Positions 11,379 to 24,221 of a DNA stretch of 64,000 nt are shown piece after piece; the stretch's first letter is position 1; every line of letters begins with the position of its first letter. The translations under genes and the position numbers were made by a program. The notes beneath the pieces were generated by a model. It saw only the letters and a list, made by a program, of their open reading frames with translations, was not told the DNA's origin and made no database searches. The stretch comes from a virus (Duplodnaviria > Caudoviricetes). Where the stretch lies: positions 13,511-77,510 of IMG/VR virus record IMGVR_UViG_3300024046_000025, one strand, 5' to 3'.

Positions 11379-11582
11379 AAAGTAGTGCGGAAATACGAGT
11401 ATCAACACGGCCATGGAGAGGGCGCCAAAGCCCATTAGCGCCCAACTGAGCGGCTCGGTAAAGCCATTGGCAAAAGCTCCAAGAAAAACCGCGCCGGCCG
11501 GGACTGCCAGCCACCACCGGCTCATAGGCTTGAGCTCGTAGAGGTGGGAGTGCTTTCGGGGGTCTTGGTCAATTTGTTTCAC
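11361..11582 (-). CDS. Small two-TM membrane protein A (~73 aa)
   Basis: Two hydrophobic helices; GTG at 11582 with GAGG RBS chosen over upstream starts. Confidence 0.55.
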   Translation of the reverse strand: MKQIDQDPRKHSHLYELKPMSRWWLAVPAGAVFLGAFANGFTEPLSWALMGFGALSMAVLILVFPHYFLSRRD

Positions 11583-11904
11583 TGTCCGCCCTCGGGTTGA
11601 GAATGTCGGGGCGGGACCGGCCATATCGAAAACGGGCAACCTGGTGATGATAGTCAGGTTCAAGGCGGTCCAGCGCTTCTTCGATCGCATCGAGGTCCAT
11701 TTCGATGTTTTCGAACTTCACTGTGAAATGCGCATAGACCAGCGCAGTCATAATCATTGCAAAAGCCGGCGTCCAAGAGTGCCAGGTTTCAGGGCCAACA
11801 ACTGAGCTGACCCACCATACCCCACCAACAAAAAGTGCCGGGAATATAAACTTTCGTAGGCCCGTAGGGTGCTTTTTCATCTCAGGCATTGGAGGCTTTT
11901 CCAA
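11569..11904 (-). CDS. Small two-TM membrane protein B (~106-111 aa)
   Basis: Two hydrophobic helices plus an acidic coiled-coil tail. Confidence 0.6.
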   Translation of the reverse strand: MEKPPMPEMKKHPTGLRKFIFPALFVGGVWWVSSVVGPETWHSWTPAFAMIMTALVYAHFTVKFENIEMDLDAIEEALDRLEPDYHHQVARFRYGRSRPDILNPRADSETN

Positions 11905-16085: not shown

Positions 16086-16718
16086 ATGGCCAAACTCAAC
16101 GCGGAGCAGGTGTTCCGCGCGAAGACGCCTGCCATCATGGCGCAGCTTATGCGTGATTTTCCCATCACGCCGGTAGATGCAGCCGCGATCCTCGGCAACC
16201 TCGGGCACGAAAGTGCCGGACTGACCACCCTTCAGGAGATCAAGCCCGCAGTTCCGGGATCCAAGGGTGGCTATGGATGGGTGCAGTGGACCGGCCCACG
16301 ACGCCGCGCCTATGAGACATATTGCAAGCGCACCGGCAAAGACCCGGCCAGCGATGAAGCCAATTATGCATATCTGTTCCTGGAACTGAAAGGCATAGAG
16401 GGCAGCGAAGGAGGGGCTATTGGCAAACTGGTTGCGGCCGAGGGGTTGGATGCTAAGGTTGAAGCGTTCGAGCGCGCGTTTCTGCGTGCGGGCGTGAAGC
16501 ACTACCCCAGCCGCAAGCAGTGGGCCGCCATCGCGCTCGATGCGTGGCGGGTCAAGTCCAACACCGGCATTCCGATCCCCAATCCCACGCCAGAGCCACA
16601 GCGCCCGCAGGGGGCTGAAAAGCTCGAACGAGGCAAAGCACCCATCATCCTCATCATCTTCGCCCTGGCCGCCCTCGCAGCGGCCCTTTTCTTGCTCCCC
16701 ATTTTCCCGAAAGGCTGA
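16086..16718 (+). CDS. Endolysin, phage lysozyme 2 family, with C-terminal transmembrane helix
   Basis: AAAILGNLGHESAG and GGYGWVQWTGPRR motifs; Pro linker then IILIIFALAALAAALFLLPIF. Confidence 0.8.
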   Translation: MAKLNAEQVFRAKTPAIMAQLMRDFPITPVDAAAILGNLGHESAGLTTLQEIKPAVPGSKGGYGWVQWTGPRRRAYETYCKRTGKDPASDEANYAYLFLELKGIEGSEGGAIGKLVAAEGLDAKVEAFERAFLRAGVKHYPSRKQWAAIALDAWRVKSNTGIPIPNPTPEPQRPQGAEKLERGKAPIILIIFALAALAAALFLLPIFPKG

Positions 16719-16723
16719 ACATC

Positions 16724-17038
16724 ATGGGCATTCTCGAAAACGTCGCCATCCAGTGGCTTATCCGGCGCATCCCCGAGGTCGGCGGGCTGCTGCTCACCAT
16801 CGTGACCTTCTTTGCCGCCATCCCGCCCGAACAGCAGGCGGTCATCATCGCTATTCTCACTGGCAATGGTGGGGGCCTCACGGTCGGGGCGGTCATTGGC
16901 CTTGCCATGTGGATCTATGCCCAGGTCATGAGTTTCCGCCAGACCACCAAGCCCAAGGTCGTGGAGCAGGTCGCCGGCCGGCCCATGGAGATCAGCAGCG
17001 GCAGGAAATCCCTGCTCGATATCCTGCTGGGCAGGTGA
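16724..17038 (+). CDS. Holin-like membrane protein
   Basis: 104 aa with 2-3 hydrophobic helices and a charged C-terminus, directly after the endolysin. Confidence 0.6.
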   Translation: MGILENVAIQWLIRRIPEVGGLLLTIVTFFAAIPPEQQAVIIAILTGNGGGLTVGAVIGLAMWIYAQVMSFRQTTKPKVVEQVAGRPMEISSGRKSLLDILLGR

Positions 17039-17042
17039 CTAT

Positions 17043-17070
17043 GGGGCGGCTCCGGCCGCCTCCCTTTATT
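17043..17070 (+). terminator. Terminator-like hairpin after holin
   Basis: GGGGCGGC-TCCG-GCCGCCTC followed by CCTTTATT. Confidence 0.5.
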
Positions 17071-17086: not shown

Positions 17087-17320
17087 ATGTCTGGACCAAA
17101 AATCGACTTCACCATCAACCTCGGCCATATCATCACCTTCACCGGGTTGATCGTCACCATGGCCTTGGGCTGGTCAACCTTTGACGGCCGACTACGAGCC
17201 GTCGAAAAGACGCTGGAGACCACCACAGCAACGCTGGTGGAACAGGTGCGCCAGGGGAGTGCCATTCAGGCGCTTGACCAGCGCATGCAGCGCGTCGAGC
17301 GTATCGTGGATGCTCGGTAG
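17087..17320 (+). CDS. Lysis-associated membrane-anchored coiled-coil protein (77 aa)
   Basis: One N-terminal TM plus coiled coil; GAGG RBS; last + strand gene of the late operon. Confidence 0.6.
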   Translation: MSGPKIDFTINLGHIITFTGLIVTMALGWSTFDGRLRAVEKTLETTTATLVEQVRQGSAIQALDQRMQRVERIVDAR

Positions 17321-17361: not shown

Positions 17362-18015
17362 TCAGCCGTTCAGAAGCTTCATTGCCCGCATGGAAACATG
17401 CCCGCACCTGCCGATGATGATATGGTCATGAACCAGAATTCCCATCGGTTTGGCCACGGTAATGATCTCATGAGTCATCCGAAGATCGGCGGATGACGGC
17501 GCAGGATCGCCAGAGGGATGGTTGTGGACCAATATGAGCGAGATGGCCGACAATTCTAGCGTCCGCCGGATCACCTCGCGCGGATAGATAGGCGTATAGT
17601 CCACCGTACCGACCTGCTGCACCTCATCAGCGATAAGGCGGTTCTTCTTGTCGAGGAAAAGAACCCGGAACTGCTCGATGCTCTCGAAGGCCATTGCTGT
17701 GTGACAGTAATCCAGGAGCTGTGGCCAAGAGGTTAGAATTGGCCCTGCATCGCAAATTCGTTCCTTGGCGATTTGCTGTGTTGCCTCCATCACTGTCGAT
17801 AGAAGCCGAGCCGTGGCAGGGCCTACTCCTGCCACCTCCTGCATCCGATAGGATGGCGCCGCGATTGCCGCAGGCAGAGAGCCGAAACGTCGCAGTAATC
17901 CGGCTGAGATTTCCCTGGATCTCCTGATCCCCACGGCCGAGGAAAGTAGCCGAGTCAGAAGCTGTTCCTGGTCCTCGGCAGTCCATCTGGCAACGTACCT
18001 TTTGGTGTGCTGCAT
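17362..18015 (-). CDS. radC: RadC-family JAB/MPN domain protein
   Basis: VAGVG HhH-like motif, EQFRVLFLDKKNRLI, GTVDYTPIYPREV, LVHNHPSGDPAPSSAD, VHDHIIIG. Start taken as ATG 18015 (MQHTK). Confidence 0.92.
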   Translation of the reverse strand: MQHTKRYVARWTAEDQEQLLTRLLSSAVGIRRSREISAGLLRRFGSLPAAIAAPSYRMQEVAGVGPATARLLSTVMEATQQIAKERICDAGPILTSWPQLLDYCHTAMAFESIEQFRVLFLDKKNRLIADEVQQVGTVDYTPIYPREVIRRTLELSAISLILVHNHPSGDPAPSSADLRMTHEIITVAKPMGILVHDHIIIGRCGHVSMRAMKLLNG

Positions 18016-18016
18016 T

Positions 18017-18637
18017 TCATGCCACCTTCTCCTTCTGGTAGTCAGAAAGAATAGGTCCTGCCAGCCGGCCAAAGCGCCGCGCTCCGGCCAATGCTGCTTC
18101 CGTCACATCGAAATAAGCCGGAAGCCAGGCCTCTCCGCCAATATCAATGGCGTCGCCGTGAATATGGACCTGCCATCCCATGCGCCTCCAGATCGCCAGC
18201 CATTTCGCGTCCTGAATGCCACCGACCTGGCGGTATCCATTGGCTAAGCAGTATTCCATCACGGCGGCGCAGCACTGGGCCTTGAGAACGAGCCCCCCGC
18301 CTTCGCGGCGGTGAGCCACGACGAAACCGCGCGTCCATTCGACTATGCGGGGATCGCGCGGCATAGGCAGAAGGTTGCACGTATCCGGGAAAACCTCGCT
18401 CAGCATGTGGGGCAGGTGGGTTGGCACCAGTCGGGATCCGGCCACAAGCTCACTGCCATCAATGACCAACAGATAAGCTGCATGGGCAGTATCGAATTGG
18501 TCGACCTCCAAATTGTCAGGGGATGGAGGCACCCATCCTAGCTCCTCCGCATAAACTTTGTGGCGAGCCCGGTAGAAATGCTCGAGCTCCAGTTGAAAGA
18601 GATGTTCGTTCGTACGCGTAACGAAGTTAAATTGCAT
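18017..18637 (-). CDS. luxI: Acyl-homoserine-lactone synthase (LuxI family)
   Basis: Conserved RARHKVY..E.GW, EVDQFD, SRLVPT, EWTR residues; GGAGG RBS before ATG 18637. Confidence 0.92.
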   Translation of the reverse strand: MQFNFVTRTNEHLFQLELEHFYRARHKVYAEELGWVPPSPDNLEVDQFDTAHAAYLLVIDGSELVAGSRLVPTHLPHMLSEVFPDTCNLLPMPRDPRIVEWTRGFVVAHRREGGGLVLKAQCCAAVMEYCLANGYRQVGGIQDAKWLAIWRRMGWQVHIHGDAIDIGGEAWLPAYFDVTEAALAGARRFGRLAGPILSDYQKEKVA

Positions 18638-18692
18638 CTCACCCTCCAAGCGTTAACGGAGGGAAGGTGCAATTGCGTCTAGATCCTTTCCT

Positions 18693-18710
18693 ATTGTCCT
18701 TCGGGACGGT
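18693..18710. promoter_or_regulatory. lux-box-like imperfect palindrome upstream of luxI
   Basis: ATTGTCCTTCGGGACGGT (GTCC-N4-GGAC core), ~65 bp upstream of the luxI start. Confidence 0.6.
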
Positions 18711-18767
18711 TGTCAGGCCGAATCATCGGAGAAATATAAGAGAGTGCAGCTAGTTAGGGTGCGATGC

Positions 18768-19493
18768 TCATAGGATAATTTGGCGTGATCTGATTGCTTT
18801 GGCGACGGCGTGCGTTGTGGTTGTGGCGTTCAGTTTCACCCTGGCATGGGCGAGGTGTTCCTTCACCGTTCGTTCGGAGAGCATCAGGATATCTCCCACA
18901 TCAAGGTGGGATTTCCCGTTGGCTACCCACCGCAGGACCTCCCGTTCTCGCTCAGTCAATCGTGCAATAGCGGTTACATTGTCATCGTGGATTTCCACAG
19001 CGCGCATTTCCGCATGCAGGCAGATCAGATGTAACATTTCGCGCCCAAGCGTATCGAGCTCCACCGGCCTGTCAGTCGCTAAGGAAACAACTGCCTGCAC
19101 GCTTGAGGGGTCGCCCATCGGAAAGCCGATGCCATCAGCCAAGCCTAGGCCAGAAGCTTCGCTGGCGATCTGCGAGGCAACCCGTGTTCTTCGGCTTCCT
19201 TTCCGTGCCTCTTTCCAAGAGAAGGGGCGCGTCCGCGTCAGAGAGAAAAGGCTGACGGGGTCATGCCAAAAATATTGGCCTTGGCGGTATCGGGTTAGCC
19301 AAGCCTCTGGCCAGGTATGCGCAATAATATACGGCTCTGCATCTTCTCCCAAGGAAGGGAGCCGTGTCATCATGAAGTAGTCAAAACCAATGTTTTTTAA
19401 TGTGGTCGAGAAATCAACAATTAGCTCATGGAAAATTTTATGTTGATCGCAGCGGTCAATAAATGCCATTGCCTGGCAGACGATCTCCTGCAT
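18768..19493 (-). CDS. luxR: LuxR-family quorum-sensing regulator (autoinducer-binding domain + HTH)
   Basis: W(PEAW)..Y, DP, W, G signature residues of the AHL pocket; C-terminal LTEREREVLRWVANGKS...SERTVKEHL; GGAGGAGG RBS. Confidence 0.93.
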   Translation of the reverse strand: MQEIVCQAMAFIDRCDQHKIFHELIVDFSTTLKNIGFDYFMMTRLPSLGEDAEPYIIAHTWPEAWLTRYRQGQYFWHDPVSLFSLTRTRPFSWKEARKGSRRTRVASQIASEASGLGLADGIGFPMGDPSSVQAVVSLATDRPVELDTLGREMLHLICLHAEMRAVEIHDDNVTAIARLTEREREVLRWVANGKSHLDVGDILMLSERTVKEHLAHARVKLNATTTTHAVAKAIRSRQIIL

Positions 19494-19668
19494 TCCCTCC
19501 TCCGCAATCTTGCCTGCGAATTAATACTAATTACTTATAAAGAATGTCAGTAGGAAAATTACGAATTGTCCATAAGTGGGGTTGCTGTTAGCCACCTTGC
19601 CAACTAAATGGCGATTTGTTTCCGTATTGGAAACCGCATTCTGAGCAATGGGAGGCTGCTCCCGTTAG

Positions 19669-19980
19669 ATGGTATTAGGAAGGGTGACGCCCGATAATCT
19701 CATGATCGCAGATTTGAGCTACAAAAAAACTCCGGCGTCAGATGATGTTGTTGTTGAGCTATTTTGGCAGCGCGGCACTAGGATGGGGCAGGTAAAATTG
19801 CCTCCTTGCTTGGAGCAAAGTGTAGCTGAGAATGGTTTGCCTAATCTCACGCCGCTGCCTGTTATTTCAGCCGTGGCCTACGCAATGGTGCTAGCAGCTC
19901 AGACACGTCGCAGCCTGACGCTTTCTGGTGATGACCAAGTGTGGCCACTGGAGTGGGGTAGCCTGGTCCGCGTCCACTAG
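19669..19980 (+). CDS. Hypothetical protein divergent from luxR, 103 aa
   Basis: Only sizeable ORF in the interval; AT-richer codon usage like the lux genes; start uncertain. Confidence 0.5.
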   Translation: MVLGRVTPDNLMIADLSYKKTPASDDVVVELFWQRGTRMGQVKLPPCLEQSVAENGLPNLTPLPVISAVAYAMVLAAQTRRSLTLSGDDQVWPLEWGSLVRVH

Positions 19981-20005: not shown

Positions 20006-20027
20006 TTGACGTGTTCCATTTTTGTTC
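20006..20027 (+). promoter_or_regulatory. TTGACG -35 element with adjacent alphaproteobacterial LexA (SOS) box
   Basis: GTTC-CATTTTT-GTTC at 20013-20027, an exact GTTC-N7-GTTC, 30 bp before ORF 20057. Confidence 0.75.
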
Positions 20028-20056
20028 TCATTTCTACTCGCCTGTGGAGGTGAGAA

Positions 20057-20263
20057 ATGTCAGAGCAAAAATCCGGCGGCATCGATGGTGCCCATAACTA
20101 TCCCATGGATGCGGCAGACGGGATGCGGAAAATGCTGGAATACAAGGCGGAGATGCGACGGCAGCATGACGAACGGATTGCCGAGCGCAAGGCCCAACGT
20201 GAGGCCGCGAGAAAAGCCGCCAAGCAGGTTCCGCCAGTCGAGTATCCTTGGATGAAGGAATAG
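20057..20263 (+). CDS. Small charged helical protein, 68 aa (SOS-inducible candidate)
   Basis: GGAGG RBS; E/R/K/A-rich helix; directly downstream of the LexA box. Confidence 0.7.
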   Translation: MSEQKSGGIDGAHNYPMDAADGMRKMLEYKAEMRRQHDERIAERKAQREAARKAAKQVPPVEYPWMKE

Positions 20264-20264
20264 G

Positions 20265-20510
20265 GTGCGCCCGACACCAGCCGATTCTCCCTATGAAGAT
20301 CGTTCCATGACTACCGAACTCGTTCCTTCCGGTCCCGACATCACCCGCGACGGCAAGTCTGTCACGCCTTTGGCTTCCCTGTATCGCTGTGAGGGTTGCG
20401 GCTATGTCGGGGCGCCCTTCGGCTACAAGCGCGGCGATGAAGTGGTGAGTTATTGTGGCTGGGACGGCCATAAGCCGATCTGCGTGGGGAAGGGTAAGGC
20501 GGAGCGGTAA
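20265..20510 (+). CDS. Small Cys-rich (CxxC) phage-like protein, 67-81 aa
   Basis: RCEGCGYVGAPFG and two further Cys; starts 1 nt after the previous stop (GTG 20265; alternative ATG 20307). Confidence 0.55.
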   Translation: MRPTPADSPYEDRSMTTELVPSGPDITRDGKSVTPLASLYRCEGCGYVGAPFGYKRGDEVVSYCGWDGHKPICVGKGKAER

Positions 20511-20580: not shown

Positions 20581-20606
20581 GTTCTGATTCTGTTCTTGCA
20601 TCGTTC
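20581..20606. promoter_or_regulatory. Triple GTTC array forming two overlapping LexA-box matches
   Basis: GTTC-TGATTCT-GTTC-TTGCATC-GTTC. Confidence 0.55.
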
Positions 20607-20665
20607 TGCAAGGTTTGGTGAGGATGATAGGGGTGGGGAAATCTCCCCCGGCGGCGACAAAGCCC

Positions 20666-20695
20666 TTGCCTTATGGCCTCATTGCCCTGTATCAG
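20666..20695 (+). promoter_or_regulatory. Putative sigma70 promoter of the tRNA gene
   Basis: TTGCCT-N18-TATCAG, 9 bp before the tRNA 5' end. Confidence 0.45.
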
Positions 20696-20704
20696 ACCCA
20701 CGCC

Positions 20705-20797
20705 GGAGAGGTGGCCGAGTGGTCGAAGGCACGCCCCTGCTAAGGGCGCAGATGGTGATGAACTGTCTCGAGGGTTCGAATCCCTTCCTCTCCGCCA
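20705..20797 (+). tRNA. tRNA-Ser(GCT): tRNA-Ser, anticodon GCT
   Basis: Acceptor GGAGAGG/CCTCTCC + GCCA; anticodon arm CGCCC-CTGCTAA-GGGCG; long variable arm; T arm GAGGG-TTCGAAT-CCCTT. Confidence 0.97.
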
Positions 20798-20819
20798 CTT
20801 TCAAGTTGCGAACCTGCCA

Positions 20820-22018: not shown

Positions 22019-22402
22019 TCAGCCGAACACCTTATTGGCTTGCTCCGGCCACGGCGCGGCCGTTGCTTCGACGAGGGACATGAGGCTGACCGCCGGAGAC
22101 TCCCGGCCGCAGGTCAGGCGTTTGAGGACGGTGGGCGACAGATAGGCCAATCGCAACTGGCGACTGACATGCCGCTCTGCCAGACCGACAGCCTTGGCGA
22201 GATCATGGACCGTGGCGAACTCTCCGGCTTCCATGCGGCGGCGCCAACTCCACGCCCGGCCGATGGCGCGCAGGACGTGAGGATCGGGAGTACGGTCCTC
22301 GCTCGGGCGATAATCCACCGGCGGCAGGAGCTTCGGCCGCCCGTTCTTCTTTCGCACTTTCAACGGGATCAGCACCCTGATCGTGTCATTGGCTTGCGTC
22401 AT
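22019..22402 (-). CDS. Recombinase-associated hypothetical protein with HTH-like segment, 127 aa
   Basis: Coupled to the recombinase (TAATG); TVHDLAKAVGLAERHVSRQLRLAYLSP. Confidence 0.7.
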   Translation of the reverse strand: MTQANDTIRVLIPLKVRKKNGRPKLLPPVDYRPSEDRTPDPHVLRAIGRAWSWRRRMEAGEFATVHDLAKAVGLAERHVSRQLRLAYLSPTVLKRLTCGRESPAVSLMSLVEATAAPWPEQANKVFG

Positions 22403-23718
22403 TACTCCGCAGCCTCCATGCGAGCGGGTGCGATCATCTCGCGGATGACCCCACCGATGCCGTCGGCCCGGACATCGACCGCGAGCCCGTCAGCGGTCAC
22501 GGTGACGCGCCGGACGAGCAACTGAATGATCCGCGCTTGTTCCGCAGGAAAGAGCTGGTTCCAGAGCGCACCGAAATCGTTCAACGCAGCGATGACCTCG
22601 GCTTCTCGAACCTGCGGGCCATCCTGCTGCAAGGCGGCGAGAACCTTCGTCACCACCTCGGGCGTCTGCACGATACGACGGACTTCCGTCACCACCGCGT
22701 CCTCGACCATGCCCGCCGGAAGCCGCGACGGCACTTCGGATTCGCCACCCTCGCGGTTCCGGATCACATCCATCGAGACATAGTAGCGGTAGAGCTTGGT
22801 TCCCTTGCGCGTGGCCGTCGGCGTCATGGCTGCGCCGGTTTCGCTGAAGATCAGGCCCTTGAGCAGTGCAGGCGTCTGCATCCGGCTGTTGTTCGCACGC
22901 TTGCGCGGGCTCTCCTGCAAAATGGCGTGGACGTGGTTCCAGAGCTCGGCGTCGATGATGGCTGCATGCTCGCCGGGATATGCCTTCCCTTTGTGGACGG
23001 CTTCACCTCGATACACGCGGTTATTCAGCAAACGGTAGAGGTAGCCCTTGTCGACCAGCGTCCCTTGCTTGTTTCGGAACCCCTGCGCACGCAGTTCGCG
23101 GGCCAGCGTCGTCGCCGAACCGAGTTCGATGAAGCGTTCGAAGATGCGGCGCACAGCGGCAGCCTCGGCCGCGTTGGCCACCAGCTTGCGATCCTGAACA
23201 TCGTAGCCGAAAGGCACATAGCCGCCCATCCAGATCCCGCGCTTCCGGGATGCCGCCACCTTGTCGCGGATCCGCTCGCCTATCACCTCGCGCTCGAACT
23301 GGGCGAAGCTGAGCAGGATGTTCAGCGTGAGCCGTCCCATGGACGTGGTGGTGTTGAATGATTGCGTGACGCTCACAAACGTCACTTCGTTCCGGTCGAA
23401 CACCTCGACCAACTTCGAGAAATCCATCAGCGAGCGCGAGAGCCGGTCGATCTTGTAGACGACCACGACGTCGATAAGTCCGTCCTCGATGTCGGCGAGC
23501 AGCCGCTTCAGCCCCGGGCGGTCGAGTGTGCCGCCGGAGAAGCCGCCGTCATCATATCGCTCCCGGATCGTGGCCCAGCCTTCCGACCTCTGGCTGGCGA
23601 CATAGGCCTCGCAGGATTCGCGCTGGGCATCGAGGCTGTTGAATTCCATGTCGAGTCCTTCCTCGCTCGACTTCCGGGCATAGATGGCGCAACGAAGGCG
23701 GCGTTTCGGGTTGACCAT
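22402..23718 (-). CDS. Large serine recombinase (integrase candidate)
   Basis: CAIYARKSS catalytic motif, VVYKIDRLSRS, SMGRLTLNILLSFAQFEREVI, followed by a recombinase domain. Confidence 0.93.
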   Translation of the reverse strand: MVNPKRRLRCAIYARKSSEEGLDMEFNSLDAQRESCEAYVASQRSEGWATIRERYDDGGFSGGTLDRPGLKRLLADIEDGLIDVVVVYKIDRLSRSLMDFSKLVEVFDRNEVTFVSVTQSFNTTTSMGRLTLNILLSFAQFEREVIGERIRDKVAASRKRGIWMGGYVPFGYDVQDRKLVANAAEAAAVRRIFERFIELGSATTLARELRAQGFRNKQGTLVDKGYLYRLLNNRVYRGEAVHKGKAYPGEHAAIIDAELWNHVHAILQESPRKRANNSRMQTPALLKGLIFSETGAAMTPTATRKGTKLYRYYVSMDVIRNREGGESEVPSRLPAGMVEDAVVTEVRRIVQTPEVVTKVLAALQQDGPQVREAEVIAALNDFGALWNQLFPAEQARIIQLLVRRVTVTADGLAVDVRADGIGGVIREMIAPARMEAAE

Positions 23719-23726
23719 GCCCTCCA

Positions 23727-24221
23727 TCAGGCACCCTCCCGCTCACGCAGGCCGAAGAAGCGGTAACCATTCCAGCGGGTGCCGGTGATCTCCCGAGCCA
23801 CGGCAGAAAGAGAGCGGAACCTGCGGCCCTGCCATTCGAAGCCGTCGTTCATGACCGTCACGGTGTGCTCGATCCCGTTCCATTCACGAACGAGTCGGGT
23901 TCCCGCGACAGGATTGCGCGGATCGGCGATCTGGTTCTTGCCGCGTCCGATACCTTCCACCTCGTCCGCCAGCAGGTCGAGCATTCGCCTGGTGTCACGG
24001 TCGGGGCCGCCGTAGGCCAGCTCCTGGATGCGATGACCGATGCGCAGTTCGAGAAAGGCACGGCTGTTGTTCGGAGACGTCCCGCCGAACAGAGCCTGCC
24101 AATCGATCTTCAGTTCCTTCACCGATTTGGACTTCAGCGCCGTCAGCCGGGCGAGCACCGTTCGGTCGACCTCGGCGCTCATGCCGGGGGTCTGCGCCAC
24201 CATCCTCTTGTCATGCTTCAT
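23727..24221 (-). CDS. DUF2924 family protein
   Basis: GTRLVREWNG...F.WQG...SLSAVAREITGTRWNG.RFFGL; GGAGG RBS before ATG 24221. Confidence 0.85.
   Translation of the reverse strand: MKHDKRMVAQTPGMSAEVDRTVLARLTALKSKSVKELKIDWQALFGGTSPNNSRAFLELRIGHRIQELAYGGPDRDTRRMLDLLADEVEGIGRGKNQIADPRNPVAGTRLVREWNGIEHTVTVMNDGFEWQGRRFRSLSAVAREITGTRWNGYRFFGLREREGA

Follow-up and report, generated by a model that had tools for sequence, protein, structure and literature searches.

A four-gene luxR-luxI quorum-sensing module placed at the attachment-site end of a predicted Devosia prophage

Prophage-borne circuits for signaling by N-acyl-homoserine lactones (AHLs) have been characterized experimentally in two Phaeobacter prophages, which use modules of the form hth<>xre-luxR-luxI as a lysogeny switch (Bunsick et al., bioRxiv 10.64898/2026.07.02.736140). 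The authors report that 53 of 93 Roseobacter prophages contain modules of this kind and that none were found outside this clade; Devosia and RadC are both absent from their text. An uncharacterized myovirus with a predicted LuxI-LuxR pair also figures in a 2021 review (PMC7790227). Here we describe a complete pair in a window of 64,000 nucleotides, which corresponds to bases 13511-77510 of the 77.5-kb IMG/VR provirus record IMGVR_UViG_3300024046_000025. The window encodes luxR, luxI and radC head to tail on the minus strand, and together with a divergently transcribed small gene, orf92, these define a module (orf92<>luxR-luxI-radC; 17362-19980) that we place with considerable confidence inside a prophage, hereafter prophage A. 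We favor, with moderate confidence, the proposal that this module is moron-type cargo that provides the lysogen with an accessory quorum-sensing (QS) channel. An earlier sequence-only reading of the window had regarded the phage-borne combination of synthase and receptor as rarely described and the locus as a candidate for an undescribed system, which is overstated given the Phaeobacter and Roseobacter modules and the myovirus pair that precede it.

All three of luxR, luxI and radC are intact, as had been thought, with their Pfam domains and signature residues in place (Table 1). LuxR combines an N-terminal autoinducer-binding domain with a C-terminal GerE helix-turn-helix (HTH) domain and matches CviR, RhlR, QscR, LasR, SdiA and TraR in the PDB. 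Its nine family-conserved residues (W65, Y69, D78, P79, W93, G121, E183, L187 and G193) are invariant in 7 homologues and are spaced identically to those of TraR, whose counterparts are W57, Y61, D70, P71, W85, G113, E178, L182 and G188. The LuxI protein is matched by seven solved structures of its family, and the structure-match alignment yields R25, Y29, W35, E44, D46, D49, R69, F83, E100 and R103 at the relevant positions. The reference residues are R25, F29, W35, E44, D46, D49, R70, E101 and R104; the catalytic Arg/Trp/Glu/Asp set is kept, with a single conservative Phe-to-Tyr change at position 29. A search with the LuxI protein found its closest relatives in Devosia. Its nearest solved structures are BjaI (5w8a, 9.5e-32), 6wns and RpaI (6wn0, 1.4e-29), whereas the matches to the enzymes that use acyl carrier protein (acyl-ACP) donors are much weaker (TofI 2e-16; EsaI and LasI 1e-8). 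BjaI and RpaI use acyl-coenzyme A (acyl-CoA) donors, and the closeness of the window LuxI to these two proteins would assign it by similarity to the acyl-CoA subgroup, making an acyl-CoA donor probable and a non-standard signal possible.

The RadC protein retains the metal-binding motif of the JAB domain, HNHPSG-x5-S-x2-D, in the form HNHPSGDPAPSSAD, along with a helix-hairpin-helix (HhH)-like GVGPATA segment. Its gene lies directly downstream of luxI, as previously noted, with a start one base past the luxI stop (TGAaATG), and from this arrangement is read as translationally coupled to luxI. The luxI-radC order is kept in five other Devosia genomes. At a related locus, L006, the place of radC is taken by a gene for a 442-aa protein without a Pfam match (L006:10626-11954), whose start likewise falls 2 nt past the luxI stop; the luxI-coupled gene is therefore exchangeable. 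JAB proteins of the RadC type are characteristic of mobile elements, and their presumed function is nucleic-acid processing (PMC5512222).

Homologues of orf92 adjoin luxR at L004, L006, L008, L196, L198 and L202, that is, in all close LuxR relatives examined, and because orf92 accompanies every one of them we treat the module as a unit of four genes rather than three. The orf92 protein has to date been encountered in Devosia only; its family comprises 27 protein clusters, among which every named one is from Devosia and none has a Pfam domain. An AlphaFold (AF2) model with a mean predicted local distance difference test (pLDDT) score of 88 predicts an alpha/beta protein without an HTH. No solved fold matched this model (best E 0.17 in Foldseek against the PDB; best Z 3.8 in the wide VIA-align comparison), and an Atlas search with orf92 returned hypothetical-protein clusters only. 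A solitary homologue without luxR or luxI is encoded in Devosia sediminis (L095:11737-12018), where it follows the lysis genes of a related prophage at a distance of about 1 kb; a gene for an SOS-response-associated peptidase (SRAP) is found a few kb beyond it.

The sequence-only reading had also pointed to a lux-box-like palindrome between luxR and luxI. An imperfect 30-bp palindrome is indeed present at 18640-18669, and is the only one there, but it overlaps the luxI ribosome-binding site (RBS) and, judged from its base pairing, is better read as a putative translational hairpin that would sequester the RBS than as an operator. An equivalent anti-RBS/RBS stem precedes luxI in seven loci (including L004, L006, L008, L196, L198 and L202), with compensatory changes in 4 of 11 pairs, and this conservation points to translational control of the LuxI synthase.

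The placement of the module inside prophage A is supported by the attachment (att) sites. The cassette is located between a phage lysozyme gene on one side and, on the other, small open reading frames (ORFs) followed by a tRNA-Ser(GCT) gene, just as had been reported. A search for the att site located it not to the left of 17360 but to the right of the cassette, as a 112-bp core composed of 71 bp of upstream DNA and nucleotides 1-41 of the tRNA. An exact-pattern scan detected a second, 100% identical copy (L151:7022-7133) on a 1.45-Mb metagenome contig. It occupies the very end of this contig, and there the core continues into a gene for a 378-aa tyrosine integrase and not into the remainder of the tRNA. 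As the L151 copy lies directly beside the tyrosine integrase we assign it to attL, and the window copy, which is joined to the 3' part of the tRNA, to attR; the att-bounded element ends at 20633. The ENA sample that contains the cassette contig also contains the L151 integrase. In Logan, the 100-bp unitig 20634-20733 has double the depth of its flanks in two metagenomes (258 versus 117/129 in X1; 50.8 versus 25.7/20.8 in X2), and its alternative left neighbor is the L151 flank.

The empty site, attB, was recovered in ten other Devosia species, in which the chromosomal flank seen in L151 (a GST-like gene and its neighbors) joins an intact tRNA-Ser(GCT) directly; these phage-free relatives have no cassette at that position. 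Neither of the two findings named in the sequence-only reading as refuting it is thus present. In the closest empty-site genome, L156, flank, core and tRNA are contiguous, with identities of 86% and 96%. The L151 integrase is 28% identical (7e-30) to the integrase of Rhizobium phage RHph_TM3_3_3, in which the 5' half of tRNA-Ser lies beside int, a geometry that accounts for the upstream position of prophage A relative to the rebuilt tRNA. In IMG/VR, an exact copy of the att core was not found. Loose contig ends observed within 20701-20800 are explained by the tRNA-Ser genes of other organisms in the metagenomes.

Comparison with a related provirus, L092, delimits the module precisely. L092 and prophage A share the lysozyme, a holin-like gene and orf77, with 38-70% amino-acid identity over the three proteins, and in both a promoter with a LexA box follows. 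The gap between orf77 and this promoter is 175 bp in L092 versus 2.68 kb in the window, and the surplus consists of exactly the four-gene module. Thus, in the manner of a moron, the module is discrete, is missing from L092 at the same junction, runs on the minus strand among plus-strand late genes and is lower in G+C. The last point agrees with an earlier remark that the cassette is AT-richer than the structural genes, its G+C being 0.52-0.57 versus about 0.60 for the latter. Because the integrase of L092 is unrelated to that of L151, what L092 has in common with prophage A is limited to its lysis module and LexA promoter.

A survey of 109 Devosia species genomes revealed a LuxI of the window type in about 10 of them (53-80% identity) and a different LuxI, presumably the common system of the genus, in about 40 (33-39% identity). 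The complete four-gene module is present in five of the 109. At L202 it is flanked by phage structural and ejection genes and by an integrase (phrog_1, 1.7e-45), and so lies inside another prophage; at L200 (D. chinhatensis) a distance of about 5 kb separates it from tail-fibre and GH108 lysozyme genes. At L196, L197 and L198 it lies among metabolic genes. This occurrence in both Devosia prophages and chromosomal sites implies that the module moves as a unit. As far as seen, it is an accessory element limited to Devosia. The window LuxI is 78-80% identical to the phage-free chromosomal copies versus 63-70% to the other phage-linked copies, and its affinity to the chromosomal ones indicates that the module moved between chromosome and phages more than once. 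No close relative of LuxI was found in IMG/VR; a LuxI-like sequence was detected in five of 50,697 phage records, in every case with at most 32% identity; and the segment 14000-21000 had no DNA relatives in the phage collection beyond tRNA-Ser matches.

Several further observations concern the genomic setting of these genes. A SRAP gene adjoins the module in two genomes (L196:2420-3187 and L200:11953-12633), and umuDC is also found beside one copy. At L199, L201 and L203 (Devosia genomes G022, G053 and G038) a LuxI of the same type, 66-74% identical, is encoded no more than about 100 bp away from tRNA genes (Phe, or a Gly/Tyr pair), and no luxR homologue was detected near these luxI genes at E 1e-6. 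In run X3, an ant metagenome, there is a strain of 2.6% divergence in which the prophage B side (see below) has a depth of about 156 and prophage A with the cassette one of about 3; these depths imply that the dominant strain there is almost without prophage A.

We propose the following scenario for the function of the module. Prophage A is integrated in the 5' half of tRNA-Ser(GCT), with the module in its att-proximal end, and the lysogen would transcribe the module from the module's own promoters, antisense to the late operon. LuxI is predicted to make a homoserine lactone (HSL), with acyl-CoA a more probable donor than acyl-ACP, and LuxR with bound signal would activate luxI-radC and probably also orf92. 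Lysogens would thereby gain a private signaling channel, with RadC and orf92 as its direct outputs. An effect on prophage induction would be secondary, a possible route being read-through from orf92 into the LexA-boxed orf68-orf81 operon. Cargo is favored over a lysis-lysogeny switch because prophage A has its own repressor and a LexA-boxed operon, because the module is devoid of xre and hth genes, and because it also occurs at phage-free sites, where it presumably works.

Certain observations weigh against this interpretation or parts of it. The contig with attL and the integrase and the contig with the cassette are not physically joined, several assemblies breaking at both places; hence the contiguity of prophage A is deduced from the logic of the att sites, the empty site and the depth. 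On the side of the repressor gene, ENA, Logan and IMG/VR contigs alike end within about 100 bp of L001:1, and the integrase-side contigs end about 1.5 kb past attL. Among the sequencing runs in which the stretch was recovered there is no RNA run. Upstream of luxI, where the relatives L004 and L006 have perfect 18-bp palindromes, the window has a degenerate element, and autoinduction may consequently be weak or may proceed via another site. As to the distinct idea that the phage itself counts lysogens, the modules at L196, L197 and L198 are embedded amid metabolic and transport genes, and the surrounding 10 kb or so contain no phage genes. Lysogen counting by the phage's own AHL, as the sequence-only reading had envisaged, is weakened by these phage-free copies, by the presence of a cI-like repressor and the LexA-boxed operon, and by the location of the module at a late att-proximal site and not in the immunity region.

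An alternative in which the module nevertheless takes part in the lysis-lysogeny decision has a precedent in the xre-luxR-luxI modules that control lysogeny in the two Phaeobacter prophages. By analogy, a phage AHL would announce the presence of lysogens, and LuxR with AHL would tune either induction (e.g. by driving or blocking orf68-orf81, an antirepressor candidate) or the lysogenization of newly infected cells. In support of this, orf92 ends 26 bp ahead of the -35 hexamer belonging to the LexA-box promoter, and the interval lacks a terminator-like site. In three Devosia genomes, moreover, the module recurs at the end of a prophage, each time oriented alike with respect to the late genes. 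However, prophage A retains a separate cI-type repressor (phrog_4; L001:1092-1703) with a divergent early operon, in addition to the LexA-boxed operon, and the module is situated about 30 kb away from it in the late, att-proximal cargo region. It also has no xre or hth gene, orf92 has neither an HTH nor a known fold, the genes adjoining orf92 differ among the other prophages, and the window LuxI is nearer to phage-free copies than to phage-linked ones. We consequently regard such a direct role as unlikely, though worth keeping in view.

Similarly speculative, and offered as a tentative suggestion of low probability, is a broader scheme in which Devosia phages use a portable module beside a LexA-controlled antirepressor-type operon to combine lysogen density with the SOS response in induction. 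The signal might then be an unusual acyl-CoA-derived HSL, and RadC and orf92 might serve as effectors under QS control, with nucleic acids or LuxR itself as their targets. Phage AHL communication would in that case have arisen a second time outside the Roseobacter clade, with an architecture independent of the first.

The module could instead be a decaying passenger, with reading frames intact and autoinduction no longer working in prophage A, as hinted by the palindrome upstream of luxI, which is degenerate in the window with 5 of 9 pairs left. Against this, the four genes are intact with all family-conserved residues kept, conservation extends to the RBS hairpin and the gene coupling, and an identical cassette sequence recurs in several independent runs and assemblies; decay of the circuit thus appears improbable. 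Finally, the cassette might be host DNA, or an independent small island, that abuts the prophage and hence is not packaged. In favor of this are its non-phage chromosomal sites in other Devosia, its G+C below that of the phage and the placement of the left portion of the prophage on a different contig, so that the whole element has not been observed in one piece. The notion is nonetheless largely refuted and highly improbable, as the att core lies right of the cassette and has only two copies by depth (which leaves no room for an internal hybrid att site), as phage-free relatives have the flank joined directly to tRNA-Ser, and as orf77 and the LexA-box promoter on either side are homologous to adjoining parts of L092.

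Accessory cargo thus being the reading that we prefer, the remaining features of prophage A may be considered alongside it. Left of the module prophage A has a G+C of about 60% and encodes a repressor, a DnaB helicase, a methylase, portal, scaffold, major head, virion and ejection proteins, a tail fibre and a lysozyme, and it is apparently a complete temperate P22-like podovirus of a Devosia strain. The lysozyme, which opens the lysis cassette, is 65-76% identical to those of proviruses L091 and L092 and of Devosia sediminis (L095). A terminator-like hairpin (17043-17062) lies 3' of orf104. The 30-bp stretch over it, 17033-17062, is common to the end of the holin-like gene of another prophage in the same metagenomes and breaks assemblies; the Logan contig breaks at this stretch were considered as a possible att site, which was rejected as they are due to the shared sequence.

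To the right of the module follow the LexA-box promoter, two small ORFs (orf68 and orf81), the tRNA-Ser(GCT) gene and prophage B. Neither orf68 nor orf81 had a match in Pfam or PHROG, and no relatives of orf81 were found in IMG/VR. In L092, which is otherwise mosaic, the alphaproteobacterial LexA-box promoter precedes a different, 49-aa ORF (11535-11743). The LexA-box position at the prophage end looks like a slot for SOS-controlled small genes, possibly including an antirepressor. About 30 bp inside attR, at 20581-20606, three GTTC words are spaced at 7 nt (two overlapping GTTC-N7-GTTC), and these could be a second LexA site or arm-type repeats for the integrase.

As the second prophage, B, begins directly after tRNA-Ser, the IMG/VR record is two tandem prophages (A, then B), rather than a single virus. 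Prophage B (20798-64000) has a G+C of 0.64-0.70 and encodes a NOV_C protein, a large serine recombinase (22402-23727), a DUF2924 protein, an ImmA/HTH pair, a helicase and a lambda-type portal. Recombinases of this type stand at the end of many 40-45-kb IMG/VR proviruses, and in many relatives of prophage B GTTC-N7-GTTC occurs about 750 bp upstream of the recombinase. The serine recombinase was considered as the integrase of prophage A and rejected, being terminal in IMG/VR proviruses of the prophage B type of about 40-45 kb.

Table 1. Features of the module and its surroundings, in coordinates of the window
Feature	Position	Strand	Evidence
Phage lysozyme, start of lysis cassette	16086..16718	+	Pfam Phage_lysozyme2 4.9e-21
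orf104, small lysis-cassette protein (predicted holin-like)	16724..17038	+	homologues after lysozyme in L091, L092, L094, L095
orf77, final late-operon gene before the module	17087..17320	+	70% identical to L092:11125-11358
radC, 217 aa, HhH and RadC-type JAB domain	17362..18015	-	Pfam RadC PF04002 2e-40; PHROG 10276
luxI, AHL synthase, 206 aa	18017..18637	-	Pfam Autoind_synth PF00765 6.3e-21, residues 20-185
Putative hairpin CCCTCC-N10-GGAGGG pairing the luxI RBS	18642..18663	-	inverted repeat; equivalent stem in 7 homologous loci
Degenerate lux-box-like element, ~55-75 nt upstream of luxI ATG	18693..18710	-	5/9 pairs kept
luxR, AHL receptor/transcription factor, 241 aa	18768..19493	-	Autoind_bind PF03472 1.7e-25; GerE PF00196 3.1e-15
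Palindrome GTTTCC-N5-GGAAAC, candidate regulator site in the luxR/orf92 divergent promoter region	19618..19634	.	palindrome scan
orf92, small protein divergent from luxR	19702..19980 (frame open from 19669)	+	homologues adjoin luxR in relatives
LexA-box promoter, TTGACG then GTTC-N7-GTTC at 20013-20027	20006..20031	+	32 bp 94% identical to L092:11535-11566
orf68 and orf81, two small phage genes that follow the LexA box, between module and attR	20057..20510	+	ORFs within the att-bounded element
attR core, 112 bp (71 bp upstream DNA and tRNA-Ser(GCT) nt 1-41)	20634..20745	+	100% identical to L151:7022-7133
tRNA-Ser(GCT), rebuilt at attR	20705..20797	+	ARAGORN

The 2.7-kb module, found both in prophages and at plain chromosomal sites, offers a natural system in which to ask whether the role of a QS circuit changes upon its capture by a phage. 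The phage-borne and chromosomal copies, the X3 strain that is almost without prophage A and the predicted non-standard HSL provide a natural comparison set for this purpose.

Among described elements, Rhizobium phage RHph_TM3_3_3 (MN988468) resembles prophage A in having a homologous tyrosine integrase beside an attP with the 5' half of tRNA-Ser(GCT), but is otherwise unrelated to it and carries no QS genes. Classical morons, such as the lambda b-region, bor and lom, are like the module an autonomous unit between the late genes and att, on the opposite strand, of lower G+C and missing in a related phage; unlike their single conversion gene, the cargo here is a whole circuit for cell-cell signaling. 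The BjaI and RpaI systems of Bradyrhizobium and Rhodopseudomonas provide the nearest LuxI structures and the same luxR-then-luxI order, but are chromosomal, at most about 40% identical and associated with neither radC nor orf92. The LuxR receptors of Aeromonas phage ARM81ld and of phage Apop are phage-borne like that of the window (Silpe and Bassler 2019, PMC6456758), whereas these phages merely listen to host AHLs without a synthase of their own, and the window carries the cognate synthase.

Closest are the switches of Phaeobacter inhibens T5 and other Roseobacter prophages, which have in common with the window a complete LuxI/LuxR pair in a temperate alphaproteobacterial prophage (on the att evidence in the present case) and an organization as an exchangeable cassette of four genes with a divergent partner. 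Unlike in those switches, the operon of the window has no xre, there being no gene upstream of luxR; the divergent partner is orf92, whose fold is unmatched and is not an HTH; and radC is coupled to luxI. Moreover, the module does not replace the cI/Cro immunity genes but is placed at the late, att-proximal end of a prophage with its own repressor, the host is Devosia, a member of the Hyphomicrobiales, and further copies reside at phage-free chromosomal sites. Complete phage AHL circuits, which were experimentally shown only in 2026 and reported as confined to Roseobacter, are thus extended to the Hyphomicrobiales in a different build.

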